From Zootoca vivipara (lineage: Eukaryota), in NCBI RefSeq assembly GCF_963506605.1, contig NC_083290.1, positions 15,314,001-15,378,000 on the forward strand: a stretch of 64,000 nt of DNA, in the 5' to 3' direction. Positions 5,667 through 52,086 of the stretch are shown here, piece by piece. Under the pieces are notes generated by a model that was given only the letters and a program-made list of their open reading frames with translations, had not been told where the DNA came from and searched no databases. Each line of letters begins with the position of its first letter. Within the stretch, counting starts at the first letter, position 1. The position numbers were made by a program, and so were the translations under genes.

Positions 5667-5860
5667 CTGGAGGCGATGGCGGCGGAGCAGCGGACGCGGT
5701 CGCTAAGGTCGCAGAGGGCCCGGTAGTGGAGGTCGCGGCCCTTCTCACGCTCCAGGTGGCAGGCGTAGAGCGAGAGGGCGATGCCGGCCAGGCACACGGC
5801 ATAGCGGGCCACCCGCTCCCAGCGCGGCACCGAGACTCGCAGGAGGACGGGCGCCGCCAT
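5667..5860 (-). CDS. VKORC1L1: Vitamin K epoxide reductase complex subunit 1-like 1, coding exon 1 (remaining exons not seen in the window)
   Basis: Translates [65 protein letters not shown], the VKORC1L1 N-terminus with both loop cysteines. The 194-bp phase-2 exon ends at AG|GTCAGG (GT at 5666-5665) inside a CpG island. Confidence 0.96.
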
Positions 5861-6270
5861 CTTAGCCCAGCCCTCGCCTAGGCGGACCCGGCAGGAGACT
5901 TCTCGCCCCTGCGCGCGCGCAAGCTCACGCCACGACGCAAACCACGTCGCGCCACGCCCGCGCGTGTTGCCTCCCACCCACCTATTGGCTGAGATGAGCC
6001 ACGCCCCCTCCCCCTCACGCCCCTCGGCCTGGGTTCTTATTGCGGCTTCTCCTCCTCCTCCTCCTTTCTATCTCCTCTCTGAACGTGGCGCTCTCAGACG
6101 CGGAGCCAGCCGGCCAATCAGAACCACGGGCGCGTGTATTCTCATGGCCCCGCCCACTCTCATCCTACCGTCCGGCCCTACCCACCGCACCTCTAGCAGC
6201 GCTTACCGGTAGATAGGAGGATATCGCGAGGCTTGTGCGTGGCAAGGGAAGGCAATGGGCGTGGTCCTCC
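5861..6270 (-). promoter_or_regulatory. CpG-island promoter of VKORC1L1
   Basis: CpG-rich. Contains a GCGCGCGCGC NRF1-like run near 5911-5920, CCAAT boxes near 5984 and 6114, GC boxes, and a YY1-like GCCGCCATCTT overlapping the ATG. Confidence 0.75.
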
Positions 6271-6445
6271 ACTGCTACATTCTGCCCGGGCTGAGAGTTC
6301 GAATCCTGTGTTAGACAATTCCTGGCAGGGGGTTACTTTAATTTTTTTTGTATTACAGTATTTTTATTTCACTACAGTTTTTAATTATTTTTTTAATCCG
6401 TTTTTAGCTTTTCCTATTTTATCTGTGTTGTTTTAAATTGTGTAA

Positions 6446-6535
6446 CATAGCTGCCAAGTTTTCCCCTTTCTCGCGAGGAAGCCTATTCAGCATAAGGGAA
6501 AATCCCTTAAAATAAGGGATAACTTGGCAGCTATG
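6446..6535. mobile_element. 90-bp hAT MITE (CATAGCTGCCAAGTT TIR)
   Basis: TIRs plus 8-bp TSD TTGTGTAA. Confidence 0.85.
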
Positions 6536-8488
6536 TTGTGTAAGCAGCATAGATTCCCATCTGGTAAATATATGGGGTATGCAGTAAATAAATATGATAA
6601 TGATCTTATTTTGAAAATAACAACCACTTAATCCAGCAAGTGTGTGGCCCGATTAGATTATTATCTCTTGATGCTTCTGATAGTGGGCTGTATCCAACCT
6701 AAATTAGTCAGACATTCATTTTAATTGATCTGCTCTTGAGTTTTATTTTTATTTTTATTAATAAATGTATCAGCCACTCTTCAACAGCAGGTCCCAAGGC
6801 AAGTTGCAACAATTTGAACATTATAAATTAAAAACAGGCAGAACCCCTATGTCTTAAATACTTTTAATGTACTTTTTTATTTGAATGTATAAATTTGTGA
6901 TTTCATAAATATTGTTTTGTAGAGTTCTTATTGTTTAACCAATTTTATTTATTTCCAAACCCAAATTCCAAGACTTCCCAAGGCTGCTTACATTGAGAGC
7001 AAATCTGTAATGTCTCTATAACATACTGTTTCAATCACAATAATTCAGTCACTTTAAATGTAGTCAGTAGTACTGTAAAACAAAATGCAGCAGTCACCTT
7101 TGCAGTTAAAAGCCATGGGAAACAGGAGGTTGACTAGATGACCCTAAGAGTCCCTTCCAACTCTGCAATTCTATTGTTCTGTATTTTCTAGGTCAAACTT
7201 TCTCCCCTCTCCCACCATCCAGTCTTTATATTAACTCATACTGAAAGGACAGAGCATTCAAAGACATCAGACATAGTTACTACGGTATCTACATATTGGA
7301 TCCAGACAGTAGGTCCCCTGTTTATTCGGCTCTATCTGGGGCTTGCTGGACGGCCGTTCCGCATTATGAGTCCCTTTTGTTCAGAGAAACAAAGAGGGTC
7401 CTGATGACATCCTTTGGAGCCATGAATGCTACCCTTGTGCGACTTTATTGTCCCTTGGACCACAGGAAGAAAGATGGGAGTGGATATTCTATGGACGCAC
7501 TGCAACGCCATCCGCTAAGTATGACCAACCGTGCCAAGGGAATTGTCATGGGGGGGGGAGGGAGAATCTAAAATTAGACTTTAAGCCATCAGTTCATGGT
7601 ATACTATTAAACTGCATATATTAGGCCTCTCTGTGGTCTACCCCTGCACACAAAATAATTCTCCCGGAACAACAGGCGAAGGATGTTGATTGCCAATATT
7701 CTATATCATATGCCCATAGAACTTGCTCTCCGATATATCTTGATTCTACATTGGAATTTCCTAGGTATGCTAGATATCTGAATAATTTGACTATCCCCAA
7801 ATATCACCAGGCCTTTTGTATCTAAATAATCTGACAATCCCCAAATATTGCCAGGCCAGATTTAACAGTCTCCCTTCCACAATATTGGAAAGGTGTTACT
7901 GAGCTGTCCCATAGGAGGGTCATCTGTGTCCCTGTAGAGGTGAAGTTGTCAAAACTTTGGGTCACATCTTCTGGTAATCTCCATAGTGAGGAATGTACAG
8001 TAATAGGCTCTTTTGCCAGTTTTTGGCCAGGGAATTCCTGGCCACTGCTAACAGTTTGAATGATTCTTGACTACTGTACTTTTTGTGATATTCACCACTT
8101 TAAGTGGCTTATGCTCCCCACCGCCAATAAATAAATGTTTTATGTTTTTAGCTGAATGATTTTGCATCATTAATTGTGAACCACCTTGGAGTTATTCTTA
8201 ATGAAAGGAGAGATGACAATGGCTTTAAAATAAAGTTTAAAAGTTCATCTCCTACTTTAAAAAAATGTTAAGAATTGTTCTAAATAGATCAATGTTTTAT
8301 GTCTTCATTGAATTGTTATCATTGTAAACCACCTTGGGGTTATTTCTTAATAAAAGGTGGTATCAAATGGATTTAAATAATTAAACAAAATTAAACAAAA
8401 AAACATCATATATAAATATATTCAAATAATAATAAATGTAATGATAATATGTAATCATAAAAGTACATTTTATTTTCTGAGTCAGACA

Positions 8489-8491
<3 letters not shown>

Positions 8492-8527
<36 letters not shown>
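8492..8527. repeat. (AT)n microsatellite
   Basis: Direct reading. Confidence 0.95.
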
Positions 8528-8530
<3 letters not shown>

Positions 8531-8789
8531 TAATTTCATTTATCTCATCTATCATGCAAATATGTAATGATAATATAGAATAATAAAATAAAAATTATTT
8601 ATTTGCAATGTTTATAAGCAGCTTTTTATATGATATATATAGCCGATCTGCTATGACAGCACAGGCCCAGGGTAGCTAACGTGATGTCCCCCTCCAGGTG
8701 TTTTGGACTGCGAGGTGGCTGGTGGGAACTGTGGTCCAAAAACACCTGGAGGGCACCAGGTTGGCAAAGGCCGGGCCGGCTTCACACTA

Positions 8790-8895
8790 GGCCTTGGCAA
8801 CGCATTGCTATGGTAACGCTGTGGCGAGGGAGGGGGTGATGGCTCTATGACGCAACCCGGGGGAGGGCTGTATTTGCGCCGCGTGCCGCCAATAG
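8790..8895 (+). promoter_or_regulatory. Proximal promoter of the NUPR2-like gene (RFX X-box, CRE/ATF-like site, CCAAT box)
   Basis: CCTTGGCAAC (8792-8801), ATTGCTATGGTAAC (8804-8817), TGACGCAA (8848-8855) and GCCAAT (~8888), all within about 170 bp upstream of the ATG. Confidence 0.55.
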
Positions 8896-8957
8896 CGAAG
8901 CAGAAGCCGGGCAGCTCGTGGAGGAGGAGGAGCGCAGAGCAGGAGGGCGGCGCCAAG

Positions 8958-9530
8958 ATGCGGCGTGAGCGCAGCCGGTCCAGGGTTGCTCTTTCGACAG
9001 TGTCGGCTGATCCCCCTGCCGGCGCGGACGACGAAGAGCAGGAGTCGGTCCGTTCCTCGTCGCCTTCGGAGGAGCGCGTGGACCGGCTGCGGGATCGGAC
9101 GTACCGGGGCGGCCCGCGGGGGCCCGGCGCGGGCGGGAAGGGCCGGAGCCGCCGCGAGAGGGAGCAGCGCACCAACTGGACCTCCCCGTCCGGCCACGAG
9201 CGCAGGATCGCCGCCAAGATCCGCGCCAGCATCGCCAAGCGCCGCCGCCAGCAGCAGAGCGGGCCCCGATCCTCCCAGAACCGGAGCCGCAGCAGGGGCC
9301 GGCGCCGCACCGTCACCGCCACCTCCTCCCCGGGGCCAGAAGCAGCGGCAGACCCCGACTCTGCTGTCCAGCAGCAGCTGTGCCCGTCAGGAGCATCGGA
9401 GAGCGAGGAAGCCTCTTCACCCTGTTGTGACCAACGATGCGCCTCCTGCCCTGTACGCATGTTGTGGCTCCCCACCCCCCTTGCAATAGCTGAACCCACA
9501 TGCACACACGTGGCCCCCTCTATGCAATAA
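8958..9530 (+). CDS. NUPR2: NUPR2 (nuclear protein 2 / p8 family)-like intronless protein, 190 aa, Arg-rich with C-terminal extension
   Basis: ATG in GCCAAGATG context. Residues 61-97 KGRSRREREQRTNWTSPSGHERRIAAKIRASIAKRRR match the p8 core (recalled NUPR2 KGRTRREQALRTNWPAPGGHERKVAQKL...RKRR). CpG island, AATAAA at 9628-9633, adjacent to VKORC1L1. Confidence 0.78.
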   Translation: MRRERSRSRVALSTVSADPPAGADDEEQESVRSSSPSEERVDRLRDRTYRGGPRGPGAGGKGRSRREREQRTNWTSPSGHERRIAAKIRASIAKRRRQQQSGPRSSQNRSRSRGRRRTVTATSSPGPEAAADPDSAVQQQLCPSGASESEEASSPCCDQRCASCPVRMLWLPTPLAIAEPTCTHVAPSMQ

Positions 9531-9836
9531 TACACCCTTTCCCGTACACACACTTTCCCCTTTCTATTCAACACTGCACCCTCATACACATACTTTTTTA
9601 TCCCCTCTAGGCCGGGGTGCCAACTTGAATAAAACATTGGGAGGCCCAGGTAAGCCCCACCCTGCATAATCAATCACATGATGTGGCACACGCATACTAT
9701 TTGAATGGCAATGCCCATCAAGTTTTGGGTGGCCCACCCCTTCATTTATTTCATGGAGCAATGGGACCTCAGTCCCCCGGAGTTGGTTGCTATGCTCTAT
9801 GCAGTAATGCACACTTGATTCCATACCCCAATAGAT

Positions 9837-10180
9837 AAAGGTAAACTGACCATTAGGTCCAGTCGTGACTGACTCTGGGGTTGTGGCGCTCATCTCACGG
9901 TATTGGCTGAGGAAGCTGGCGTACAGCTTCTGGGTCATGTGGCCAGCAGGACAAAGCCGCTTCTGGTGAACCAGAGCAGCGCACGGAAACACCGTTTACC
10001 TTCCCGCTGTAGCGGTACCTATTTATCTATTTGCACTTTGACGTGCTTTCGAACTGCTAGGTGGCAGGAGCTGGGACTGAGCAACGGGAGCTCAGCCCCG
10101 TTGCGGGGATTCGAACCGCCAACCTTCTGATTGGCAAGCCCTAGGCTCTGTGGTTTGACCCACAGCGCCACCCACGTCCC
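9837..10180 (-). mobile_element. Sauria SINE, full length
   Basis: GGGACGTGGGTGGCGCTGTGG head with B-box GGTTCGAATCC, core gcaaatagataaataggtacc, (ACCTTT) tail. Flanking repeat CCATACCCCAA. Confidence 0.9.
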
Positions 10181-10616
10181 AGTCCCATACCCCAACACAT
10201 CCTTAGAAATATGGATGTGCCCCTCAGTATTCTACAGTGCTCCACCCCACCCATCTTTGAGAGGCACCTGGTCAATGGGGCTAAGAACATAAGAACCCTG
10301 CTGGATCAGGCCAAAGGGGGCGCATCTAGTCCAGCATCCTCTTCTCACAGTGGCCAACCAGATGCCCCAACGGGAAGCCGAAAAGTCAGAGCAGCAGCAC
10401 ACTCCCCACTTGTGATTCTGAGAAACTAGTATTAAGAGCCCTACGGTCTCTGACAGTAGAGGGAGAACATAGCCATTGTGGCTAGTAGCCGTCAATAGCC
10501 TGCTTATCCTCCCTGAATTTCTCTGATCCTCTTGAAGGCATTAAAGCTGGTGGCTGCAACTCATAGGAAGATAGGAAGCTGTATGAGTCAATCCATGATT
10601 GGATCATCTTTTACAC

Positions 10617-10802
10617 CAGGGGTTGTCAACCTGGTCCCTACCGCCCACTAGTGGGCATTTCAGGATTCTAGGTGGGCGTTAGGGGGTTCTACGGCACAAG
10701 CTGAATCCTCCTTCCATCGAGCACTGGTGGGTGGTAAGGAAATTTTACCATCAAGAAAGATGCATTAGTGGGCAGTAGGTATAAAAAGGTTGACTACCCC
10801 TG
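10617..10802. mobile_element. hAT MITE
   Basis: CAGGGGTTGTCAACCT...AGGTTGACTACCCCTG termini; degenerate TSD ending TACAC. Confidence 0.7.
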
Positions 10803-11354
10803 ATGTACACTAACTGGCAGTGGCTGTTTGGAATTTCAGGCAGGAGTCTCTCCCAATCCTACCTAGAGATGCCAGCGGGGATTGAACCAGAGATCTGCTT
10901 GCAAGGCAGATGCTATACCACTGAGCAATAATCCTTGGGGGTTCAGACTTGGCTTTGCTGCATCAGGTGTCCAAATAGCTGGGACAAGTTAATCCGAAGT
11001 AGAATCAGCCTTCCCCAGCCTACTGCAATTCCTAGCAACTGCTATTCATAAGCACAGCTCAGAGATAGAGCATCTCCCTCGCAACTGCCTATGTTCTGGC
11101 ATCTCCATTGTGACTACTGTACAGTACTAGGTATTGATTACCCTTCATGGATTTGTTTAATCCTCTTTCAAAGCCATCCAAGTTGGTGGCCATTTCTACA
11201 TTTTGTGGTTGTGAATTCTGTGTGTTCAGATATGCCCAAATGACTCCACTGAGTCTTGGTGCGATCTGGAATCCCAAATGCAATAATACCCCTCAAAGGC
11301 CAAAATAGCTCCCCCTCTGTGGCTTTTCAAGATTAGAAGCTCTACCATCAAGTA

Positions 11355-11580
11355 CAGTGGTACCTCTACTTACGAATGTTTCTACTTACGAACGGAGCTC
11401 CATCCGCCATCTTGGATGCGGTTTAGATAGGATTTTTTCTACTTACGAATTTTTGATAGGATTGCTTCGACTTACGAATTTTTTCTCCCAATGCATTCCT
11501 ATGGGATTCGACTTACAATTTTTTTCGACTTGCGAATGTGTGTTCGGAACGCATTAAATTCGTACGTAGAGGTACCACTG
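11355..11580. mobile_element. Tc1/mariner (Tigger-like) MITE
   Basis: TA|CAGTGGTACCTCTAC...GTAGAGGTACCACTG|TA. Confidence 0.85.
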
Positions 11581-12209
11581 TAGGTTCATAGGGACATCAT
11601 CACCTCAATTGCCCTCTACTGGAGAGGTTTGTAAAACATATTCAGGCCACCAAGTTGGTGAAGGCTGCTGTATGCCCACAGATTCCAATCGTAGGACTTC
11701 CCCCTTCCAAGGCTCTGGAGAGGTATCTGCATCATAAGTGCCCATAGCATCTGGGGTCAGGGTGAGAGAGATCCTGGATCCTGCTTCCAAAGGCCAGCTT
11801 CCAAGTAATACCGGTACCCTACAGAACTTAGGGTTGACTGTGCCGAGCCGGAGAGCCTCTTGTCCCGACGATTCAAGGCCCTTTTTTGTTATCTTGCAGG
11901 TTGAAGAAATGACCACCTACTGAGGGCTTTCCATCGCTGCCATCCTGGATGTCAGCTCCTCTGTAGCCAAAAACACCTTGGGCAGAGTTTGCTGCTGTGC
12001 TGCAGAGTCCCTTCACACCACTGGGTTCTCATCCTCCAGGGCTGTTTCGGTTAAATAACACAAAGGTTCTCGGGCAAAATTTAGTTTCATGATCTGTCTG
12101 GCACTTCCCAAGATCACACACAATTGGAAAAGGTGGGATATGTATGGACAGCCTTTGCCCAACCTCCCTTCAGATGTTTTGGATTACAACTCTTGTTGGT
12201 TCCAGCCAT

Positions 12210-12336
12210 GCTGATGGGAGTTATAGTCTGAAGCACCTGGGGCTGATGGGAGTTGTAGTCTGAAACACCTGGGGCTGATGGGAGTTGTAGTCTGAAACAC
12301 CTGGGGCTGATGGGAGTTGTGGTCCAGAACATCTGA
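12210..12336. repeat. 32-bp minisatellite (~4 units) inside a hAT MITE
   Basis: GCTGATGGGAGTTGTAGTCTGAAACACCTGGG starts at 12210, 12242, 12274 and 12306. Confidence 0.85.
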
Positions 12337-13068
12337 GGCGAGTGGAATACATGCTCCAAAACATCAGGGGCAATGGGAAGTTGTGGTCTGAAATATCAGA
12401 AGTACCGGGTTGGGGGAAGGCTGGTGCACATGACATCACCCTTCAGAACTGAAACGGGGGCCATCACCACTGAGTTATCATGCACTGTGGTCCCTAGACT
12501 GTCCTGGAGTAGATTTCCTTGTCCACACAGCTCTGGGCTCATTAGAGTCCAGCTGGGCTGGACCAAAGGCCTATCTCCACCTGCATTCCCATGAGGTCCA
12601 GCCAGATACCTCCTGTCAACTGGAGAGACTTTGCATGCAAAGCAGAGTTGGGTGGGGATTTGTTGCTACACCACATAGAGGTAGCAAAATGTTTTTGGAC
12701 ACCACATAAACAGGGAAATGGTTTGCAGAGGCATCCTCAAGCATGACCTGCAATTTAAGACTCTAATTATGGCCCCTAGCCAGCTCCCCCTGCCTGGAAC
12801 TCCTGGTCAAATATGCCCCCCCCGCTGTGTCCCATCAAATATGGCATCAACATTCTGACTCCCTGTACAAATGATATGGGATGGTTGCCATGGAGAGTGG
12901 TACCCTGGTTGCCATGGGAGTCCTGTTATCCCAGCCTCCAAAGATGCTGGGCTGAACAGCCCCCATTTCTGCAATTTCTCAGATCGAAAAAACACAGCCA
13001 ATTTAGGGGACACACACAAAAGACGGCTGTCACGGCACTCAGTAAATTCAGTGCTGAAATGCCATATA

Positions 13069-13484
13069 CAGTGGTACCTCGGTTTATGAACACAATTGGT
13101 TCCGGAAGTCTGTTCATAAACTGAAGCGTTCATAAACTGAAGCGAACTTTCCCATTGAAAGTAATGGAAAGTGGATTAATCCGTTCCAGACGGTCCACGG
13201 AGTAACCGTTCATAAACTGAAGCGAACTTTTCCATTGAAAATAATGGAAAGTGGATTAATCCGTTCCAGACGGGTCCGTGAAGTACTTAAACTGAAGCGT
13301 TCATAAACTGAAACATGGGTGTAATTGGTTCCGGAAGTCTGTTCATAAACTGAAGCGTTCATAAACTGAAGCGAACTTTCCCATTAAAAGTAATGGAAAG
13401 TGAATTAATCCGTTCCAGATGGGTCCGCGGCGTTCATAAATGAAAATTCATAAACCGAGGTGTTCATAAACCGAGGTTCCACTG
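13069..13484. mobile_element. Tc1/mariner MITE with internal tandem amplification
   Basis: TA|CAGTGGTACCTCGG...CCGAGGTTCCACTG|TA; the internal block aactgaagcgaactttcccattgaaagtaatggaaagtggattaatccgttccag occurs three times. Confidence 0.85.
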
Positions 13485-14118
13485 TATATGGCATCCCTAA
13501 AATCCCGAGAGTGTGGCCACGGGAATGAATAGGGGACTGGGCTGCCAGAAGTTGTTATAGAACCATAGAATTGTAGAGTTCTAATCCAATCTCGTGCAAT
13601 GCAGGAATCTTTTGCCCAACGTGCATGGACATAGCCAGGGTGGGCAGGGAGGGGGAAGCTGCCCCCATCAAGTAAATCAATAGAACTGAGGTTCTGCCCC
13701 TCTAACATGAAGCCTGCCCCCCCCCCCAGCAAAAATCCAGATTAAGCCCATGTCGACGTGCGGTTGGAACCCATGAGCCTGGGATCCAGAGTCCCATGCT
13801 CTGCCAACTGAGCTATCCGCTTTTACGGTATTATACCCCACCTTTCCCCCAAACTTGGACTCAAGGCGACTTACACAAATTAAAACGGCATATAGGCACA
13901 AAAACAGAATGCGAAAAGCATGTGGAAGATAAAACACAACTAGCAAAAAACAGCGCAGCACAAGTTAAAAGGCGACTCCTTAAGAAACAGTTCCCCAAAG
14001 CCTGCCGGGGGAAGGACAAGGAGAGAGGCGGTCGAGAGAGGAGGAGCCGGGGAGGAGGCGGCCGCTAATGCTGCTGCTCTGGGGCAGCCACTGACTCGCG
14101 GAGGGGCGGATATCGGAC

Positions 14119-14247
14119 ATGGCTGATGACCGCGCAGACAGCAGCCGCCTAGCCGAGGTTCAGCGCCGCGTCGCCCAGGTGCACCACGAAGGCGATCCGG
14201 AGCAGCAGCTCCGTTTCTACGACGGCTGGGCCCCGGAATACGAAGAG
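14119..14247 (+). CDS. METTL27: Methyltransferase-like 27 (WBSCR27), coding exon 1
   Basis: MADDRADSSRLAEVQRRVAQVHHEGDPEQQLRFYDGWAPEYEE, with the FYDxWAPxY motif. 129 bp, donor GAG|gt at 14248, GC-rich start. Confidence 0.9.
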
Positions 14248-14347
14248 GTTACTACTACTCCACCCCCTCCTTACCCCGCTTCGCTTCCGCCCGTAGTTCG
14301 TCCCCTCTGCCTCCTGGGAGCTTTCTTCCCTTGCATTCCCTAAGGAC

Positions 14348-14456
14348 AAAATAAAAAACATTCTTTCCAGTAGCACCTTAGAGACCAACTAAGTTTGTTT
14401 GGAAGGATTTTTTTAATATTTTGATTCGACTACGGCAGACCAACACGGCTACCTAC
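14348..14456. mobile_element. Penelope-like remnant lacking the hammerhead core, METTL27 intron 1
   Basis: ccagtagcaccttagagaccaactaagttt followed by ttcgactacggcagaccaacacggctacctac, as in the other copies. Confidence 0.65.
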
Positions 14457-15289
14457 AAGCACACCCTTTTCTCCACTCATCTCCCATGTACTAAGAACTT
14501 GCTGGATTCAGCCAATGACCCATGTGGTCTAGCATCCTGTTCTTACAGCAGACACCCAGATGCCCCAATGAAAAACCCTCAAGCAGGACCTGAGCACAAG
14601 TGTCCTATCCTGTGGTTTCCAGAAACTGGTATTCAGAAGCATCGCAGCCTCTGACTCTGGAAGCAGAGCCATAGATCTCTCTTCCATGAATTCCTCCAAT
14701 CCTTTCTTTAAAGCCATCCAAGTTGGTGGCCCTCACTGCTTCCTGTGGCAGTGAGTTCCATAGTTTAACTATGCCTTCTGTGAAGGATTTTCTTTTCTCT
14801 ATCCTGAAACTTCCAACATTTGGTTTCCTTGGGTGTCTATGATTAGGCGAGAGGGAAGAAAACTTTCCTCTGTCCATTCTCTATCCTATAAACGCCTAAT
14901 CGTGTCTCTTCTGGCTCACATTTTCTCTAGACTGAAAAGTCCGAAACGCTGGTAGCTTTTGCTCCACCTTGCCAGCCGCTCCCCAGGCCCAACCTGTTTG
15001 GGGCAAGGAGGATTTTATTACCGCAAATGTCTCCATCTCAGCCAAGGTTCCCTGGAGCTGGGAAGAGCCCAAGATACCGTACCTGCTCTCCAACTGCCCT
15101 GGAATACCTGGAGCAATAAAATTGGGGTGGCAGGGGGAACTGAATGTTCTCTTCAGATGTGAAAAGGCCAAAAGTACAATTCCTAGCAGAGCCATAAGTT
15201 CTGTGTGTGACAAACCTTCCTTATACTTCCTGCAGCCAACACGATATTTTATTAAACGTATGCTGCAAGGGGTTAAAAGTACCCATGCC

Positions 15290-15640
15290 AGGAGGTTGGA
15301 AAAGGTTCAGAAAGAGGCCACCAAAATGCTACAGGGGATGGAACAACTTCCCTATGAAGAATGGTTGCAGCATTTGCAACTTTTTAGTTTGGAGAAAAGG
15401 CAGGTAAAAGCTGACATGATAGGAGTTTATAAAATTACACAGGTCCAGGAGTAAGTGAGTAGAGGAAAGTTTGCCTCCCTCTCTCATAGCACTAGAACTT
15501 GTGGACCAGTGAAGGCAAATATTCGGAGATTCAGGACTCGTCAAAGAAAGGACTTCTTCAGGCAATGCATGGTTAGACTATGGAACTCCCTCCCACAGGA
15601 GGCAGCAGTGGGCACCAACTTGGATGGCTTTAAAGGAGGC
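15290..15640 (+). mobile_element. CR1 LINE fragment
   Basis: LEKVQKEATKMLQGMEQLPYEEWLQHLQLFSLEKR; RFRT...FF...VRLWNSLP. Confidence 0.85.
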
Positions 15641-16076
15641 AGTAATGCTTCTGAATTCAGCCCAGACACTGAGGTCCAGCTGCGAGGGCCTTCTGGTGGT
15701 TCCCTCGGCACTGCGAGAAGTCGAATGCCCTCCCCTCAGATATCGAGATAAATGACTATGCAACTTTTAGAAGACATCTGAAGGCAGCCCTATATAGGAG
15801 GGTTTTTTTGAACATTTGATGTTTTATTATGTTTTTTTTATATCTGTTGGAAGCAACCCAGTCAGATGGGTGGAGTACAAACTAATAATAGCAACAACAA
15901 CAACAACAACAACCTGTTGCTGGAAACCACAGAAGGGGGAGGGGGCTCATGTGTTTGTGTTGGCCACTGTAAGAACAGGATGCTGGACCAGATAGGCCAT
16001 TAGCCTGATCCATTGGGCTCTACTTATGAAGTTCGGTCCCCACCCTGTTCCTGACTAGACCTCTTTTCCCCTGTAG

Positions 16077-16205
16077 GATGTTGCTGTCTTGCAGTATCAA
16101 GCCCCTCGACTGGCTGCTGCCTGTTTGGCCTCTGTTTTCCAGGAACCCCTCCAGGACGCTCTAGTGCTCGATGTGGCCTGTGGCACGGGACTAGTGGCCA
16201 AGGAG
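16077..16205 (+). CDS. METTL27: METTL27 coding exon 2 (SAM-binding motif I)
   Basis: ttttcccctgtag|GATGTT...; DVAVLQYQAPRLAAACLASVFQEPLQDALVLDVACGTGLVAKE; donor GAG|gtaact; 129 bp, phase 0. Confidence 0.95.
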
Positions 16206-16464
16206 GTAACTGGGGTGCCCCAGCCCAATCTCAGCAGAGGGCACCGTGGGGGTGTGTCTCCACCTGTGTCTTTGGCCAGGCCTGGGGGCCGTCAGCTGAT
16301 GTATCAAGTTATTTGGGGCACAGTGATCTCACCCTGCTGTGAACTGCCCCAATTTGATGGTGCTCTCGTCTCTGGTGTAGCAGATCAGGGAAAGGCGGGC
16401 ATCTTAGGAAGGCTGCCACTTGAGTCATGGGTCTTATTTCATTGAATCTAGTTTTTAATGGCTG

Positions 16465-16815
16465 AAAGGTAAAGGTAAAGGGACCCCTGACCGTTAGGTC
16501 CAGTCGTGGACGACTCTGGGGTTGCAGTGCTCATCTCGCTTTATTGGCTGAGGGAGTTGGCGTACAGCTTCTGGGTCATGTGGCCAACATGACAAAGCCG
16601 CTTCTAGCAAACCAGAGCAGTGCACGGAAACGCCGTTTACCTTCCCACTTGAAGCGATACGTATTTATCTACTTGCACTTTGACGTGCTTTCGAACTGCT
16701 AGGTTGGCAGGAGTAGGGACCGAGCAACAGGAGCTCACCCCGTCGCAGGAATTCAAACTGCCGACCTTCCGATTGGCAAGGCCTAGGCTCTGTGGTTTAG
16801 ACCACAGCGCCACCC
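16465..16815 (-). mobile_element. Sauria SINE
   Basis: Same consensus with (TTTACC)n tail; flanked by TTTTAATGG. Confidence 0.9.
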
Positions 16816-16974
16816 ACTCCTTTATTTTAATGGATTAGGAGGTTCATTAATATTTTTGTGCTGCTGTTAGGAGTTGATCCATCGGTTAAACTTGGGCAGG
16901 GAATATTTTGCAGCCCGGGGGCCACATCCCCTGTGGAGGCAGAGCATAGACATTGTGGTCAGTAGCCATTTAAA

Positions 16975-17317
16975 AGGTAAAGGGACCATTTAAAAGGTAA
17001 AACGTGACCAACTCTGGGGTTGCGGTGCTCATCTCGCGTTATTGGCCTAGGGAGCCGGCGTACAGCTTCAGGTCATGTGGCCAGCATGACAAAGCCGCTT
17101 CTGGTGAACGAAAGCAGCACACGGTAACACCGTTTACCTTCCCGCTGTAGCGGTACCTATTTATCTACTTGCACTTTGACGTGCTTTCGAACTGCTAGGT
17201 TGGCAGGAGCTGAGACCGAGCAACGAGAGCTCACCCCGTCGCAGGGATTCAAACCGCCGACCTTCTGATCAGCAAGCCCTAGGCTCTGTGGTTTAACCCA
17301 CAGCGCCACCTGCGTCC
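16975..17317 (-). mobile_element. Sauria SINE
   Basis: Same consensus; flanked by CCATTTAAA. Confidence 0.9.
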
Positions 17318-17952
17318 CCATTTAAACCCTTATTATCCTCCACGATTTTGTCTAGTCCTCTTTTAAAGTATCCAAGTTGGTAGCTATCCCTGTCTCCAGT
17401 CGGAGAGAGTTCTGTTAGAATGTCAGAGGAGCCAACTGGGTCTGCCCAATAGCCCATCTAGCATGGTATTCTGTTCTCACCGTGGCTGACCAGGTGTCTG
17501 TTGGAAACCTGCAAGCAGGATCTGAGCACTAAAACACTCTCCCCTCTTGTGGTTTCTAGCAACTGGTACTCAGAAGGCTGTGCTTATATTGTCCAAAATC
17601 AGTTTGAAGTCCATAGGATTATATAATTTTCTTAATTTTTCACCTGGCAATATATTGCAAATCATGAGATGTTTGTGTAAATCACGGGAAAAACTGTGAA
17701 GCCAGCCAATGCCTCTACAGAGCTCCATCCTTTATTCAGACATTGTGATATACTGTATCGGTATATCACGATGTTTAGCTGGTGATCTATTGTGATGTTG
17801 AAAACCAGATATTGCCCAGCTACCCCGACACCATCCCCATCTGGGTCCTGCGGGTGTCGCTTGTGGTGTCCAGTAAGCTCGCGTTTGATTGGCAGGCAGG
17901 AGTGGGTGTGGTTCTGGGCTGATGTCATGCGACTTAAGCTGCACCTTCTAAG

Positions 17953-18088
17953 TTGCAGGCAAAAGGTTTCTGCTGCCTCCACGGCCTGGATGGCAGTCAG
18001 GGGATGCTGGAACACGCGTGTCGCAAGGGGATCTACCAGGATCTGAAGAGGTGCCTCTTGGGGCAGGAAGCCTTACCAGCTCCTGAAG
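17953..18088 (+). CDS. METTL27: METTL27 coding exon 3
   Basis: LQAKGFCCLHGLDGSQGMLEHACRKGIYQDLKRCLLGQEALPAPE (motif II GxDGS.GML). Acceptor ttctaag|, donor G|gtaaca, 136 bp. Confidence 0.92.
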
Positions 18089-18865
18089 GTAACAGGGCCA
18101 AGGGGTGCATCACTTCCTGAGAAATGGGTTGAGTGGGTGTGGCTTAGGGTGCAGGGGGTGAGGCTGGGATGGACAAGGCGATGCTGCTGCTTCTTTCCTG
18201 CATTGACCTCTGGAACTCTCCCCGAAGGATCTGCTGCATCGTCTGGGGCTACTCCGAGAATGACAATAGTCTGTCACTTGTCAGGTGTGGGTCAGCAATA
18301 AATCACATGGAGCAAGTGAAGTTAACTCTTTATGAGAAGAAACAAGGTCTGCTCAGTAGTGCCAGGCCTAATGAGCACAGCAAGTAGATCTTGCCCCTAC
18401 GAGTCAGTTGTGGGGACTGAAGGTCCCTGCCTTCCCACAGCTGGCTAAACCTCCTCCTCTCCCGGGTCCTTCCCAAGCAATCTGAGACTCCGCCAGTGCA
18501 TCCGTCTCTACTCCTCCCTCTTCATACCTCTTATGGTTCCGGGAGACCAGAGGGGAAGGGAGCTGGTTGCAGCAGGAGGGGAAGACACCTGTGCCTCTTA
18601 ACCAACCTGCCTGGTGTCTGCCTCTTGGCCTCCCTCCTCTCCTGCTTCAGCTTCTGTCTCTGATTCTGGACTTCTCTCTGCCACAGACTCTTCCTGTTCA
18701 CTAAACCCTGTTACCTCTTCAGCTTCTGACACCACCTCATCCCAGTCTTCCCCCCTTCTCCCTCTGAGCACTCAGCATAATCCCACCCCCAATCCCCTGG
18801 CTCTGAGCCTTCTTCCCTGGGGAGTTCCCCAGCTGGTTCCTCCCACCATTCCTCTGCATCTAGCC

Positions 18866-19001
18866 CAGGCTTCCTCCACCTCGGCCCTCCAGATGTTTTT
18901 GGCCTACAACTCCCATGATCCCTAGCTAGCAGGACCAGTGGTCAGGGATGATGGGAATTGTAGTCTCAAAACATCTGGAGGGCCGAGGTTGAGGAAGCCT
19001 G
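18866..19001. mobile_element. ~136-bp hAT MITE (CAGGC...GCCTG)
   Basis: Palindromic ccctccagatgtttt...aaaacatctggaggg; TSD ATCTAGC(C/G). Confidence 0.8.
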
Positions 19002-19180
19002 ATCTAGCGAGTCCATTATCACTTGAGACCCAAGTGGGATCAGTAATGCAGAGTGTCGTTTTCTCAGTTCTGTCTGGTTTGCCAGTGCAAACTGTTCCTG
19101 GGCACTGTCGTTCATGCTGTAGCAAAAACAAAATGACAACCTCCCCAATCTGGACTGCTCTAATTCTCTCTACATGGGGC

Positions 19181-19525
19181 CATAGCTGCCAAGTCTCCCG
19201 TTTTCCCCGGGAAACCCCCGTTTTCCCAGCTGTCCCCAGCTGAAAAAATTGATTTTTTTGTTTTCCCCCGGTTTATTCTGGTGTGGCGGCCATTTTGGAA
19301 CTGGGCGGAGCATGCTCAGAAGCGACTTTTGGTGCTGCTCTGCCCAGTTCCAAAATGGCTGCAGCGCGACTTCTGGTGCGGCGGCCATTTTGGAACTGGG
19401 CACAGCAGCATCAAAAGTCACTTCTGAGCATGCTCTGCCCAGTTCCAAAATGGCTGCCGCGCTACTTCCGGTATGCTACTTCCAGTCCGGTCCCTTATTT
19501 TTCAGAGAGGAACTTGGCAGGTATG
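19181..19525. mobile_element. 345-bp hAT non-autonomous element with the same TIR
   Basis: CATAGCTGCCAAGT...ACTTGGCAGGTATG; 8-bp TSD CATGGGGC; internal direct and inverted GCCATTTTGGAACTGGGC repeats. Confidence 0.85.
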
Positions 19526-19704
19526 CATGGGGCTGCCCTTGAAGATGGCTTGGAGACTGCAGCTGCTTTTCTGCACATGTTATACCTGTCCTTACAGACC
19601 TGTTCCATTTGCCTGTTCATCCCTGAGCCCCAATTCAAAGTGTTAGGCTATTTTTTAAATTTTAAAAATACAAATAAATAACCAGTGCTGTTGCTTCTGA
19701 CCAG

Positions 19705-19797
19705 GGTGCTATGATGCTGTTCTGATCGTGGGAGCGCTCAGCAAGGGACAGGTGCCCACCAGCGTGGTTCCGGAGTTGCTTCGTGTCACCAGGCCAG
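19705..19797 (+). CDS. METTL27: METTL27 coding exon 4
   Basis: ccag|GG TGC TAT GAT...; (G)CYDAVLIVGALSKGQVPTSVVPELLRVTRP(G); donor G|gtgggg; 93 bp, phases fit exons 3 and 5. Confidence 0.93.
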
Positions 19798-19889
19798 GTG
19801 GGGCTTTTGCAGGAGATGCCCTGTTGCAGTGGGGGTTGTGTGTGTGAAGCATCACCTAGGTCCATCACTGTTCATCACTGGAATGTGTG

Positions 19890-20290
19890 CAGAGGAGAAG
19901 CGACCGAGAGGATCAAGGGCCTGGGAAATTAGCCTGATTAGGAACAGTTGAGGGAGTTGGGTCTCTTTAGCCCGGAGAAAAGAAGACTGAGAGGTGATAG
20001 GATAACCGTCTTCCAATCCCTGAAGGGCTGTCACATGGAAGATGCAGCAAGCTTGCTTCTGCTGCTCCAGTGCGGAGGACCCAAACCAATGCCTTCAAAT
20101 GGCAAGGAAGGTGATCCCTACTAAATATTAGGAAGAACGTCCTGACAGCTAGAGCTGTTTGGCAGCGGAATGGGCTCCTTTGGAAGGTGATGGAATCTCC
20201 TTCAAGGGGGGGGGGGTTAAACAGAGGTTGGGTGGAGGTCTGTCAGGGATTCTTCAGCTGTGATTCCTGCACTGCAAGCGGTTGGGCTGA
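19890..20290 (+). mobile_element. Degenerate CR1 3' fragment
   Basis: gagaaaagaagactgagaggtgatag..., ctaaatattaggaagaac. Confidence 0.75.
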
Positions 20291-21265
20291 TCCACCAAGG
20301 GAGCACCCATGAATCTGTGGCCGCTAGATGGTGCTGGGGGACCTTTTTAACCAGCCGCAGCTAAGGAGATCTACTCCAGTGGAGCTGGGGAAGAGGAATA
20401 CTGGTAGTTCGCTTGGATTTGGTTGTTCGAAAAAGACTTCCTTGAATTCAGACAAGTCACATTGAACCACCTTTAAGCCCCTCCCGTGCTCTTCAAGTGA
20501 ATGTATGAAAGGCAGAAATGCCTTTTAACGTGTTTATATTGGAGTTTTTAAAACGGTTTTGACAGCCAGGAGTGAGGATTGACAGCCATGTTTCTTAAAT
20601 TTTGTTGTGGGATTTTGGGGTTGGGTTTTTGTTTTTTTTGTAAATGCGCTGTCCCTGAAATTCATGTTCAGTCCTCCACCACTTTCCCCGCAGGATTGGA
20701 CACATTTAGCAATGGTTCCCTGCTTCCCCCACCCCCCGCCCTCCACATTTCCATTCTGAAAGTCAGGATCAATCCATCCACTGGTTGAATGTCAGGGGCG
20801 GGTGCCAGGACTCACAGGTCACCAATTTATCACGTGGCATCAATGAAGCTAACTCCTTATTCATGCCGACTCTTCCCCAGGGTCTTTTTCAAGCGATCTG
20901 AGACTCTGTCAGTGTCTATCTATGCTCCACCCTCTTAACACCTCTTCTGGTTCTGGGAGACCAGGGGCAGGGAGCTGGTCAAGTCATAGCAGGAGGGAGA
21001 GACCCACTGGCTTCTTCACCAGCCTGCCTCATCTCTGCTTTTGCCCCTGGAAGTGTGATGGAGAGAGGCCGTCTTCGTTTAGCCAGTGCAGATTTCCTTC
21101 TACCTCCCTTCATCCTGTCCTCCAACGAATCTGTCCAGATGAGGATTTTTTTTTTTTTGGCCAGTTTCACCAATGCTTGTGCGGGGAGGGGAGGAGTGTG
21201 GATAAGCCCCTGTGATGCTGACAGGGCTTTCCCTGGACCTGACCAACGGCCTCCTTTCATAACAG

Positions 21266-21489
21266 GGGGCTACGTGTGCCTGACCACCCGGAGCAACACG
21301 GGCAACCTGGAATATAAGGCCCAACTTCAGCAAGTCCTGAACGAGCTGGAGCAGCGGGGAATGTGGCGAAAAGTCGTGGAGCAGGAAGTCGAGGCGTGGG
21401 AACGGGCGACATCGGAGAAGGAGTCTGCACAAGGTCTGGAGTATATCCCTGGCGTGGTGTACCTGTATCAAAAGAACCCTGTCTTGTGA
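21266..21489 (+). CDS. METTL27: METTL27 final coding exon
   Basis: ttcataacag|GG GGC TAC...; GYVCLTTRSNTGNLEYKAQLQQVLNELEQRGMW...YQKNPVL*; AATAAA at 21566-21571. Joined CDS is 711 nt, 236 aa. Confidence 0.93.
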
Positions 21490-25974: not shown

Positions 25975-26778
25975 GGCGAGATGACCCCCCCCCGGCCAAT
26001 CATATTTCAAACACGGCACCGGCCCCCCAGGGGTGCCCCAGCGGGCGTAGCCCCGCCGGCGGCCTCCCCCCTCCCTGCACACCGCCAGATGACCGGTGGG
26101 GCGCAACCAGCTACCAACCCCACAGCTCTGCCGTCGCCACCCCCCGCCCCAATTGGCGCATGCCCCCCTCCCCAACCCTCCTCGACCTGCCCCCCCGTGG
26201 GCAGCTGGGCATGGCGGTGGCGGCGCTGCCACCTCTGCCACTCCGGGTGGGCCGTGAGCCTCCCGTCCCGTGCGGGGAGTCCCGAGGCAGGCAGGCAGGT
26301 GCGAGGGTCTACAACCGGAGCGCTGGAAGGGCGCGCAGAGTCTTGCTCTGCTCCAGCGCTGCGCTTCTCATCCCCCGCTCGCTTTCCCACCGTCGCCCCG
26401 AGGGGCGGCCAGCGCGGGAGGTAGGCGGCCCCAGAGGCAGAGAGGTGCGAAGGTGGCCCTGCCTGCCAGGTCCCTTCCCCAGCCCCGGGTGGGGTGGCGC
26501 GGGTGGTGGGGCGTGGCGCTCCCGGCCTCCGCGAGCGCCTGTTGCAGCCCAGAGCTTCCGGGCGCCACGGCAGGCACTCTCCTGCCTGCCTGCAGCCCTG
26601 GCGGCGCATTGTCGCGCTCTTGCTTGCTGTGCTGGTGGAGAGGGAAGGTGCTGCTGGAGCCCTCTCCCTGCCTTCAGGGCACGGCGGCAGGGGGGTGGGG
26701 GGCAGGCTGGCCAGCGCCCCCTCCATTTTGGCGCCCTAGGCAACTGCCTAGTTTGCCTTAATGGACGCGCCGGCCCTG
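25975..26778. mobile_element. GC-rich hAT-like non-autonomous element (one clear terminus)
   Basis: Ends ...GGCGCCCTAGGCAACTGCCTAGTTTGCCTTAATGGACGCGCCGGCCCTG. The overlapping ORFs are low-complexity. Confidence 0.55.
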
Positions 26779-28568
26779 GTCACAGGTGAGGGCTGAGTGG
26801 ACGGGTGGGGACCAAAGGTGGACAAGCTTCCCTGGAAGGAGCACAATCTGTTCCCCACCAGAGGTGCTCCCCCCACCAACATCCTATATACCCAGGACAG
26901 TCTCTACAAACCCTCAGAAAATGGTGGAACTAGAGAAATATTAAATCCAAATGGGGAAGGGGGGGGGAAGAAAGCCCAAAATGTGTGAATGTTTTCCCCT
27001 TCTCTCTCCAAACAATCTGAAACAAGGGTCTTGAAAGCGGCAAATCCTTGCAGAAATATGGATAAGGGTGAGTTCCGTGTTGCCCAACTGGGTTCCCCAG
27101 TGGGCAAAAGAGGGTTATAACTCAGTTTGGCAGGTTTGCAAGGGAGGAAGGGATGGCCGAGACAGAGAGAGAGAAAATGCTTCTTTCTGTAAAGGACCTA
27201 ACTAAAGTTGACTTAGCCTAATGGAGAAGAGAAGGATATAAAAACAGGTCCTGGTGATTTAATAAGACGTGCATGCATGCCATCTAGAGAACAATGGGTG
27301 TGGGCCATTTAGAGATCAAGGCTCCAGATAAATACCGACTTCCTGCCCACCATTAATGGAGTCGCAGGACCTCTTGGCTTCAACAGCTTCCTTGTGGGCA
27401 GAAAAGCCCCAGCTTGGGAGTCTCCCCGGCCAAATGGGATTCTTGCCTTCAAGGCAAGATTGCCACAGCTCACAGCCCTGCGGGTGAAACATCGATGCTC
27501 CATTAAAGTTTTATTTTTATTTGCATTTTGCACCTGGTTTACAACCTGCACCAACTTCCTTGTGCTCTTTTTTAAGGAGTCACTGTTTATTTTAAAACAC
27601 CAAAGTTTACACAGAGAGGGCACCTCCCTCTCTCTTTTTACAGGACGAATGTGGGTGGGGTTTGCAGAAGCTGAACAAAGGTGTATAAGCACAGATTTAC
27701 CGGTATGCTTTTGGAAATGTTACATAGCTTCATGCTAGCTTGGGTTGATGGAAGTTGGGCGTCCAGCAACATGGAACTGACTCCCTCAGAAAGGCTCTAC
27801 TTTATTGAAGGTTTTTAAGCAGAGGTTGGATGGGGGGCCTGTCAGGGATTATTGAGCTGTGTCCTCTGTTGCTACCAGCCGAATAAAGAGCATGAAATTC
27901 ACTCTCGCCTCCAAGTATATTTCACTGTGGCTCCTGGATAGCAGGGGGGTTGGACTGGAGGAGGCCCCTTCCAACTCTATTTCGGTGATTCTGTAATTCC
28001 ATGATTCCATATCCTCCGACATTTCTCTGACATTCTCTTCCACATCAATTAGCTTCTCCTGCGTTTGATCTCGCTGCAAACATATACATCATATTCACAT
28101 CTACATCAGTCACCTTGAGCAGCAGCGGAGCTTCATGCTCCGTCACCGGGGGCGGAGAGCAGGTGCGCTGCCCCCAGTGATGTGGCGCGTGTTCTGGGGG
28201 CGGGGGGGGGGCACCATGCGCAATGACATGGTGCACATTTTGGGGCAGGGTATGCCATGCGCAGTGACGTGGTGCACGTTTTGGGGCGGGGCGCACCACA
28301 CGCAGGGGCGGAGCGCACGTTTTGTGGGCGGGGCAGGCAGCGGCGATGGCGCCCCTGGGATCACGTCACTCGGGGCGCACCACCCCCACCACCCCTATCT
28401 TCCTACACCCCTGACCTTGAGCCAATTACAACCTCTCAGTTGAACCTACCTCACAGGACTGTTGTAAAGAAAAAAATGTGCGAGCGAAGGGAATGTGTGT
28501 AATACCTTCAACATATAAATGGATTTTTTTTAAAAAATTAAGCTGTAAGCTGCCTTCAGTCCCTGTCA

Positions 28569-29986: not shown

Positions 29987-30637
29987 TCAAACATAGTCTT
30001 TCCGGGCATAGCTGCCTGGGGTGGAGTGCCTCCCCCCGGCCCAGTATCTCACCGGGTAAGGTTTGGTGCTCCCCTTCTGTGGGCAGTGGCAGCACAGCAT
30101 GGCCCCTCCGAAGACCAGGAGGGCACTGGCTGCCCAGCCCACATAGAGCGAGATGCCCAGCTCTCGCTTCAAGGCCTCGGGCACCAGGGGGTTGTAGAAA
30201 TTGCTGACGATGGTGCTGGCGGACCAGGAGATGGGGATGAGCAGAGCCAGTCCGGCCAGGATGAACCCCCCACCGGCCACTGCCGAGACTCTCCCCTTGG
30301 CCTCTGGGTCCTCCACGCAGCGGGTGCACTCGGCTCCGGTGATGGCCACGAGCAGGGCCAGGGCGGAGATGGCGATGGAGACTACCACCAGGGCGCGGGC
30401 CGCCTGAAGGTCAGCGGGGAGGTCCAGCAGGGAGTCGTATACCTTGCACTGCATCTGGCCGGTGCTCTCGTAGACGCAGTTCATCCACAGCCCTTCCCAG
30501 AAGACCTGGGCTACAATGATGTTGGAGCCAATGAAGGCCGTCACTTTCCACATGGGCATGGCACAGGCCAAGATGGTACCCAGGAAGCCCAGGACTGACA
30601 GCACCAGGCCTCCCACCTGCAAGGCCAGGACCGCCAT
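29987..30637 (-). CDS. Additional classic claudin (claudin-3/4/6/9-like paralogue), 216 aa
   Basis: Single-exon ORF with W-(x)-GLW-C-C ECL1 signature, four hydrophobic segments, ECL2 [13 protein letters not shown] and PDZ tail -DYV. Strong acceptor just upstream of the ATG. AATAAA (minus) at 29563-29568. Confidence 0.95.
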
Positions 30638-36158: not shown

Positions 36159-36788
36159 TTAGACGTAGTTACTGGCAGGCCCTGACCGCGCCGCCATGTA
36201 CTTTGCTGAATACGTCTTCTCGCTTTTCGGAGGGCAGTTGAGGCAAAGCAAGGCCCCGCCGATGATCAGGAGGCTGCTGGAGGCCCAGCCGATGAACAAG
36301 GAGGGTCCGAAATCCCGTCTCATGTTGACGGAGAGCAGGGGGTTGTGGAAGTCCTGGATGATGGCATGGGTGGCCCAGCAGAGGGGGATGAGGAGCAGGA
36401 ATCCCGAGATGATGAAGAAGACGCCAGCTGCAACGATGACCCGGGCCTTAGGGACTTCCTCCTCCACACAGTTGGTGCACTTGCCGCCCAGGATGGCAAA
36501 GCAGGTACCCACCAGCGCCAGCACGATGGCGATGACCACCAGGGCCCGGCCGGCCTGAATGTCCTGCGGCAGGCCCAGGATGGCCTCGTACTGCGTGCAC
36601 TGCATCTGCCCGGTGCTCTGCATCACGCAGTTCATCCACAGGCCCTCCCAGATGCGCTTGGAGAGCAGGATGTTGTCTTCCTGGGAGATGGCCACTTTCC
36701 ACATGGGGAGAATGCAGCACACCAGGGAGCCCAGCCAGCCGATGATGGAGAGGGAGATGCCCAGGACTTGGATGCCCATGGAGGCCAT
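36159..36788 (-). CDS. CLDN4: Claudin-4 orthologue with divergent extracellular loops, 209 aa
   Basis: MASMGIQVLG start, GGKCTNC, HAIIQDF, tail YSAKYMAARSGPASNYV; 209 aa as recalled for human CLDN4; position between CLDN3 and METTL27; AATAAA (minus) at 34881-34886. Confidence 0.85.
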   Translation of the reverse strand: MASMGIQVLGISLSIIGWLGSLVCCILPMWKVAISQEDNILLSKRIWEGLWMNCVMQSTGQMQCTQYEAILGLPQDIQAGRALVVIAIVLALVGTCFAILGGKCTNCVEEEVPKARVIVAAGVFFIISGFLLLIPLCWATHAIIQDFHNPLLSVNMRRDFGPSLFIGWASSSLLIIGGALLCLNCPPKSEKTYSAKYMAARSGPASNYV

Positions 36789-51438: not shown

Positions 51439-52086
51439 ATGTCGATGGGCCTGGAGATCGGGGGCATCTCCCTCTCTTTCTTGGGCTGGGTGGGCTCCAT
51501 CTTGTGCTGTGGGCTGCCCATGTGGAGAGTCACCGCCTTCCTTGGCTACAACATCGTCACCTCTCAGTACACCTGGGAGGGCCTGTGGATGAACTGCGTG
51601 GTCCAGAGCACCGGCCAGATGCAATGCAAGGTCTACGACTCCATGCTGGCTTTGGGGGCAGACATGCAAGCCGCCCGAGCCCTGATAGTCATCGCCATTG
51701 TCCTTGGGGCGTTTGGGGTGCTCCTCTTCCTTACTGGGGCTCAGTGCACCCGCTGCATCGAGGAAGAATCCGTAAAGGCCAAAGTCACCATTGTCTCCGG
51801 GGTGCTCTTCCTGCTGGCCGGCATCGTGACCCTCATCCCAGTCTGCTGGTCGGCCAACAGAATCATCCGTGAATTCTACAGCGTTTTGGTTCCCGAACCC
51901 CAGAAGCGAGAGCTGGGAGCGGCTCTCTACATCGGCTGGGCAGCCTCCGCCATGTTTCTCTTTGGGGGCGCCTTGCTTTGCTGCTCCTGCCCCCCCAAGG
52001 AGGACAAGTACAGACCCACGAATGTGGCCTACACTGCAGCACCCAGGTCAATAGCAACCAGCTACGACAAGAAGAACTACGTGTGA
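51439..52086 (+). CDS. CLDN3: Claudin-3, 215 aa
   Basis: MSMGLEI start, [29 protein letters not shown], tail APRS...YDKKNYV. Divergent from CLDN4 as in mammals. AATAAA at 53264-53269 and 53470-53475. Confidence 0.92.

Follow-up and report, generated by a model that had tools for sequence, protein, structure and literature searches.

The DNA stretch examined here (hereafter called the window) comprises 64,000 nucleotides from the lizard Zootoca vivipara and carries an ORF on its forward strand (8958-9530) that codes for 190 amino acids. The predicted protein begins with MRRERSRSR, has 30 Arg among residues 1-120, includes a second RS block at residues 109-117, and ends in a tail of 70 residues with six Cys at positions 142, 156, 157, 161, 164, and 182. 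These features, all of which we reproduced, led a preliminary description of the locus to propose an intronless gene of the NUPR2/p8 family, rebuilt to resemble a protamine and possibly recruited as a sperm nuclear basic protein. The locus thus raises the question of what this gene is and where its unusual ends came from. The sequence from 8742 to 9668 shows 0 differences to a DNA-like contig of Z. vivipara, which may be the source sample.

Identity of the gene

The ORF is the lizard NUPR2 gene, a member of the NUPR/p8 family (for the family definition see PMC4139591), as the preliminary description had claimed. This assignment follows because a p8 profile match, adjacency to VKORC1L1, and placement in a tree agree, and because NUPR1 exists as a separate gene. 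The Pfam profile Phospho_p8 scores 36.4 bits against a cut-off of 25, which upholds the p8 core noted earlier. The match spans only profile positions 21-58 of 58, so that the Tyr-rich acidic first third of the domain is unmatched. Annotated squamate NUPR2 proteins also lack the Tyr-rich part, and therefore its absence is a trait of the clade and family membership stands. When the Pfam scan was carried to E values up to 1, Phospho_p8 was the sole match, and no protamine or transition-protein family was returned.

VKORC1L1 lies upstream of the ORF and adjoins it (Table 1). The lizard gene shares this neighbourhood with pig NUPR1L, for which the gene order given in the source is GUSB, VKORC1L1, NUPR1L, CHCHD2 (PMC4207639). 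Protein searches return NUPR2 of geckos, a cordylid, an anguid, an agamid, snakes, turtles, and mammals. Two such searches (99 and 43 matches) plus cluster members supplied hand-picked rows (16 squamates, 7 turtles, 11 mammals, and 7 fish) for a midpoint-rooted tree of 65 core columns; Phrynocephalus, whose model ends within the core, was excluded. The lizard ORF falls inside a 15-row squamate NUPR2 clade with support of 100/100 and a long stem branch (0.57). Turtle NUPR2 is placed next to this clade (99/98), and the lizard's own NUPR1 groups with fish rows. The terminal branch of lizard NUPR2 is 0.23, compared to 0.25 for Elgaria, and its core is 75% identical to that of boa NUPR2 over the 65 columns.

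The other p8 match in the genome is a NUPR1-type gene on C13 (L002, 408-1670). This paralogue resembles lizard NUPR2 in its p8 core and its net charge of 0.07 per residue. However, it is located on another chromosome and codes for a Lys-rich protein of only 81 amino acids that has kept the aromatic motif. It has one coding intron, located in the N-terminal half, and a donor about 10 nucleotides past the stop. The protein collections searched contain neither the exact lizard NUPR2 sequence nor a close relative of it. A length-limited search (proteins of 30-103 amino acids) gave 0 matches among 20 candidates, and the length-limited searches covered proteins of up to 333 amino acids.

Table 1. 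Features of the NUPR2 locus (window positions).
Feature	Position	Strand	Remarks
VKORC1L1 first coding exon (synteny marker)	5669..5860	-	VKOR-like E=2.1e-18 vs VKOR E=7e-9
RFX X-box-like 14-bp near-palindrome	8804..8817		start codon lies about 140 bp downstream
CRE-like site	8848..8855	+	1 match vs 2.93 expected by chance; overlaps in-frame upstream ATG 8847
NUPR2 residues 1-57	8958..9128	+	N-terminal RS block, acidic/Ser spacer, squamate Arg/acidic segment
p8 core, residues 58-95	9129..9242	+	basic half of the domain; Trp and GHER motif; PF10195 E=7.9e-9
Basic linker and second RS block, residues 96-118	9243..9311	+	GC3 0.95; likely end of ancestral exon 1
Residues 119-165, acidic Ser/Pro/Ala, five Cys	9312..9452	+	GT 9312 scores -3.9 bits as donor, GC3 0.64, single copy; likely exonised intron
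Candidate phase-0 donor	9453 (9453..9530)	+	strongest donor of the ORF past the p8 core (2.4 bits, 7/11 U1 matches)
Interspersed repeat with AATAAA (9628) and strong donor (9650)	9614..9760		40 scored matches of 2781 candidates, 82-91% identity
Predicted exon 2 (VEEMTTY, TGA) with preceding polypyrimidine tract and acceptor AG (11898-11899)	11880..11923	+	likeness to Heteronotia exon

Features shared with other NUPR2 proteins

The N-terminal RS block had been listed among the features of a NUPR2 proposed to be enlarged in one lineage. An RS-type start, as defined by a loose pattern, is present in 15 of 16 squamate NUPR2 proteins and in 0/7 turtles and 0/11 mammals. The 25 residues before the core likewise hold 0-1 Tyr in 16/16 squamates, compared to 2-3 in 7/7 turtles and 3-5 in 11/11 mammals. 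The RS start and low Tyr content common to squamates point to an N-terminal rebuilding of NUPR2 that is old and clade-wide rather than peculiar to Z. vivipara. Residues 1-57 can be aligned with gecko, cordylid, anguid, agamid, and snake NUPR2, and the Arg/acidic segment therein replaces the Tyr-rich motif of other NUPR proteins. As judged by alignment and tree, the first 118 residues represent the normal squamate form, consisting of an RS start, an acidic spacer, and a basic p8 half-domain. The Tyr-rich acidic half of p8 is gone from all 16 squamate NUPR2 proteins examined (models P0002-P0009, P0014, P0049-P0056, and P0131-P0139 underlie this observation) and is kept in turtles, mammals, and NUPR1.

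Comparison with annotated squamate NUPR2 models (Python XP_007429741.1, Heteronotia XP_060115274.1, Elgaria XP_063002875.1, and Hemicordylus XP_053131246.1) reveals the same RS-type start, acidic spacer, Tyr-poor segment, and basic p8 core. These models also have a seven-codon last exon, for which we predict a counterpart in the lizard DNA, and contain 16-22% Arg. The lizard protein is unlike them in carrying 47-72 additional residues past the exon end deduced for relatives, the second RS block, and five or six Cys. At 172 or 190 amino acids, depending on splicing, it exceeds the 110-133 amino acids seen in most of the 12 squamate models with a seven-residue end, the exceptions being one of 228 amino acids with a long N-terminal addition and one 69-residue partial model. 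Thus, the part of the earlier claim that concerns enlargement holds, in that the protein is longer than its relatives and has no close relative in the protein collections, whereas its RS start is squamate-wide.

Human NUPR2/NUPR1L (97 amino acids) has a p8 core whose Trp and GHER motif recur in the lizard protein. The human protein is described as disordered and nuclear, with chromatin partners and an importin-binding NLS (PMC7583046), and by analogy lizard NUPR2 is likely disordered and nuclear as well. The 11 mammalian NUPR2 proteins compared, a set that does not include human, have 3-5 Tyr ahead of the core and 49 residues from the core start to the C-terminus, whereas the lizard protein has 1 Tyr before the core and extends 112-130 residues from the core start.

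A predicted second exon

Although the gene had been called intronless, a segment at 11900-11923 consists of seven codons and TGA in an intact frame, and matches the last exon deduced for relatives. It agrees at 15 of 24 nucleotides with an exon deduced from two Heteronotia isoforms, places its stop at the same position, and has a second AG 7 nucleotides in, as proposed for the Heteronotia exon. The two isoforms diverge only past residue 113, and a 7-nucleotide acceptor shift is the sole offset among 1-21 that reconciles them. With cut-offs that were chosen after the candidate was seen, it stands alone among the window's 88 strong acceptors in combining likeness to Heteronotia with that stop. 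By nucleotide identity alone the segment ranks 2nd among 318 AGs (15 versus 16 of 24). It also ranks 2nd by peptide likeness to eight relatives, among the 255 AG sites for which codon 8 is a stop, where one unrelated site is higher.

The phase, length, and stop of this segment fit the last exon deduced for gecko and snake NUPR2, where snake proteins end in VPEMVSC or TPEMVTC. Of 25 squamate models, 12 have seven residues after a Lys, 5 have a Val-Arg run-on as a read-through GT would give, 4 have a shifted frame, and 4 have other ends; the exon structure of these relatives was deduced from protein ends. We take the segment as the homologous exon 2 of NUPR2, with its coding use predicted, and lizard NUPR2 likely has two exons. 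In turtle models, too, a comparable stretch is optionally inserted ahead of the final residues (P0140 versus P0143). The public NUPR2 models of Hemicordylus (P0009) and Naja (P0051) have long tails that resemble intron read-through.

Probable loss of the donor and proposed origin of the tail

The distance from the AKRR motif to codon 118 is 26 residues, and 20-30 residues separate this motif from the deduced exon end in 11 relatives. Codon 119 begins with GT (9312), but this site has a donor score of -3.9 bits and 3/11 U1 matches, below all eight reference donors (3.8-10.5 bits; scores are based on a general donor frequency table). No GC donor pattern was found near codon 119. GC3 is 1.00 for residues 61-97 and 0.95-1.00 across residues 41-118; beginning with codon 119 it drops from 0.95 to 0.64. 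The two parts of the tail have GC3 values of 0.64 and 0.60, with no codon periodicity, and the number of CpG dinucleotides declines from 9 in 141 nucleotides (9312..9452) to 2 in the following 75.

The tail gave no Pfam match and no Atlas match. An origin from a repeat or another gene was rejected, since a genome search with the tail DNA matched only itself. Duplication of the N-terminus was rejected at the DNA level, where 960/1000 codon shuffles score as high; at the protein level only 8/1000 shuffles do so, and this score rests on the common RSR. The frame remains open across codons 119-190 in 945/5000 base shuffles and across codons 119-165 in 1751/5000, and thus the openness of the tail frame is no greater than expected by chance. 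Given the lack of a usable donor at 9312, the drop in GC3, the single copy, the lack of an N-terminal duplication, and an openness like that of shuffles, residues 119-165 are likely an intron segment drawn into exon 1 in either predicted mRNA.

In the mechanism we propose, the ancestral donor at codon 119 decayed and exon 1 came to run on into the former intron. Splicing might then have shifted to the weak donor at 9453, whose score is equalled or exceeded by 20% of the 3229 GT sites in the window, and this would join codon 165 to exon 2 to yield 172 amino acids with the ancestral seven-residue end. Alternatively, a donor or poly(A) signal contributed by the repeat past the stop would yield the 190-residue form, as donor 9453 must be skipped for residues 166-190 and the TAA stop to belong to the coding sequence. 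The repeat-borne donor scores 11.3 bits, the highest among the 3229 GT sites, and is located 119 nucleotides past the stop; 4 of 5 repeat copies checked carry both AATAAA and the donor. We judge the two outcomes to be near even in likelihood and both may occur, with residues 119-165 and their five Cys common to the two products. The acidic tail would most likely be a tolerated disordered appendage and not a DNA-condensing module. Neutrality of the tail is offered as a proposal.

Upstream elements and possible expression in male germ cells

Several reports link human NUPR2 to spermatogenesis. Its transcript is weighted with PRM1 and PRM2 in spermatogenesis pseudotime (bioRxiv 2020.10.17.343335), is lowered in azoospermic germ cells across three azoospermia classes (PMC10265083), and is among the most abundant in sperm (PMC7035312); it can be measured in somatic tissues as well (PMC13031714). 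A boar study comments that there is no literature on a role of NUPR2 in sperm (PMC7700223), and among the papers listed in our literature searches we found none on reptile NUPR2. Because human NUPR2 is already linked to sperm, no fresh recruitment is needed in the lizard. A spermatid role of lizard NUPR2 is plausible by analogy, but would be inherited. The lizard protein likely acts like mammalian NUPR2, as a disordered chromatin protein that enters the nucleus by means of its basic segment and reaches its highest abundance in late spermatogenesis.

RFX2 is reported to drive spermiogenesis genes via X-boxes (PMC4498915), and a site upstream of the lizard gene bears a resemblance to such a box. 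It is the only one in the window (2 matches over both strands, compared to a shuffle mean of 0.36, with 8/100 shuffles reaching 2), under a general consensus that was loosened after the site was seen. Nupr names are absent from four supplements of this mouse RFX2 study, where an older alias could hide the gene. The start codon at 8958 has a strong context. The upstream ATG (a 227-residue ORF) was set aside due to its weak context and because relatives mostly start at a Met matching 8958. Several relatives' models start upstream as well (P0050, P0053, P0060, P0134, and P0139). Read in another frame, the stretch containing the CRE-like site codes for LYDAT, which also occurs in the turtle model P0060 with its upstream extension, a weak match (E=0.79). 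In 3/3 Z. vivipara RNA runs, depth is 0 across both the bins of the ORF (8804-9535) and those of exon 2, which fits restricted expression but weakly, as the runs carry no tissue label, about 7.5 million records (roughly 6%) of each were used, and the filter can remove reads, making the result weak either way.

Weighing of alternative explanations

Overall, we consider it probable that the locus holds a squamate NUPR2 of the ordinary kind, which serves late male germ cells as a disordered chromatin protein of the nucleus and to which a tolerated, intron-derived acidic tail has been added. That the gene is intronless and was remodelled into a sperm nuclear basic protein resembling a protamine is, in our view, highly improbable. 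Protamine P1 and transition proteins do have Arg-Ser dipeptides near the N-terminus and spermatid expression is possible for the lizard gene; its RS start is similar to the N-terminal block that PMC13756071 depicts for marsupial protamine 1, 25% of residues 1-118 are Arg, and the AATAAA of the repeat could yield an unspliced mRNA. However, net charge per residue is 0.07 for lizard NUPR2 (0.16 for residues 1-118, and -0.08 for the tail), roughly eightfold below the 0.53-0.61 given for protamines (PMC13756071), and equals that of the lizard's own NUPR1. The protein includes 22 Asp plus Glu as well as a p8 domain, and a conserved exon 2 is predicted. Its Arg content of 17% is ordinary, with values of 16-22% in other squamate NUPR2 proteins, 19-22% in turtles, and 15-23% in mammals, and its charge is lower than the 0.11-0.18 of 14 other squamate NUPR2 proteins with a whole core. 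Arg and RS richness was nevertheless correctly noted, as 30 Arg in the first 120 residues and 12 RS/SR dipeptides exceed the 20-26 and 4-7 found in 8 other squamate proteins counted, although overall composition is not that of a protamine. The earlier suggestion that RS repeats plus Cys form a protamine pattern also fails, since the reptile protamines examined in PMC13756071 are free of Cys, whereas the lizard Cys residues sit in an acidic tail. A search for a protamine gene in the lizard's own genome gave no match, but is uninformative, as a control query was equally silent.

The tail might instead be a functional gain, in which intron-born sequence is now a selected Cys-based module, binding zinc or forming disulfides, and the protein assists in remodelling spermatid chromatin much as a transition protein would. 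The clustering of four Cys in nine residues (156-164), the highest RS count among the squamate proteins counted, the X-box-like site, and the late appearance of human NUPR2 in spermatogenesis are in its favor, yet we regard it as unlikely given that the tail has a net charge of -6, no codon periodicity, a frame often open in shuffles, and no family match of the kinds searched. We find it slightly less credible still that the gene is decaying or poorly expressed, with donor loss leading to a 190-residue mRNA whose stop precedes the junction by 119 nucleotides and which is subject to nonsense-mediated decay, so that little protein is made. The strongest donor does lie past the stop, reads are lacking in the 3 RNA runs, and no close relative appears in the protein collections, but the core is intact with a GC3 of 1.00, the terminal branch is no longer than that of Elgaria, and the exon 2 frame is preserved. 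Moreover, mouse Upf2-null spermatocytes and spermatids are reported to show no global rise of premature-stop transcripts (PMC4858225). Finally, the tail could be an artefact of ORF calling if splicing still takes place at a non-canonical donor near codon 119, producing an ordinary protein of about 125 residues. This is very unlikely in light of the poor score of the 9312 site and the failure to find a GC donor pattern, even though that GT occurs at the expected place and phase, and read-through models with spurious tails are known for Naja, a gecko contig, and likely Hemicordylus.

Neighbouring genes

A multi-exon methyltransferase-like gene, which we take to be METTL27, occupies 14119-21489 on the forward strand, where the Pfam match is weak and limited to one exon (E=0.05-0.09). 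Three single-ORF claudins (PF00822, E from about 1e-27 to 1e-29) are present at 29987-30637 (-), 36159-36788 (-), and 51439-52086 (+). The methyltransferase-like gene and the claudins thus follow NUPR2 (window 5860-14119) at the place where pig has CHCHD2 (PMC4207639), suggesting a rearrangement downstream of the lizard gene. Turtle models named CHCHD2 (P0146-P0148) cluster with NUPR2. A GC-rich island (68%) at 26001-27000 has overlapping ORFs on both strands, and the ORF scanned gave no Pfam match; the island is likely a promoter or first exon.

Implications

These analyses provide a model for a GC-rich NUPR2 gene that has no close match in the protein collections searched. It is a likely example of intron DNA that was turned into coding sequence once the donor had shifted, perhaps through the action of a transposon. 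Of wider significance is the loss of the Tyr-rich p8 half from every one of the 16 squamate NUPR2 proteins examined. Drawing on this loss, the protamine-1-like RS start, and the long stem branch, one could propose that squamate NUPR2 was rebuilt as a phosphorylation-controlled spermatid transition protein, to which the lizard added a Cys-cluster tail from an intron after a transposon seized the donor. We hold this combined scenario to be unlikely, but if true it would offer a case, open to dating, in which a transposon gave a protein of sperm chromatin a new module for binding metal or forming disulfides. According to PMC13756071, the question of how sperm DNA is compacted in reptiles, which lack Cys protamines, is largely unanswered. 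If squamate NUPR2 is a spermatid chromatin protein, it would bear on this process.
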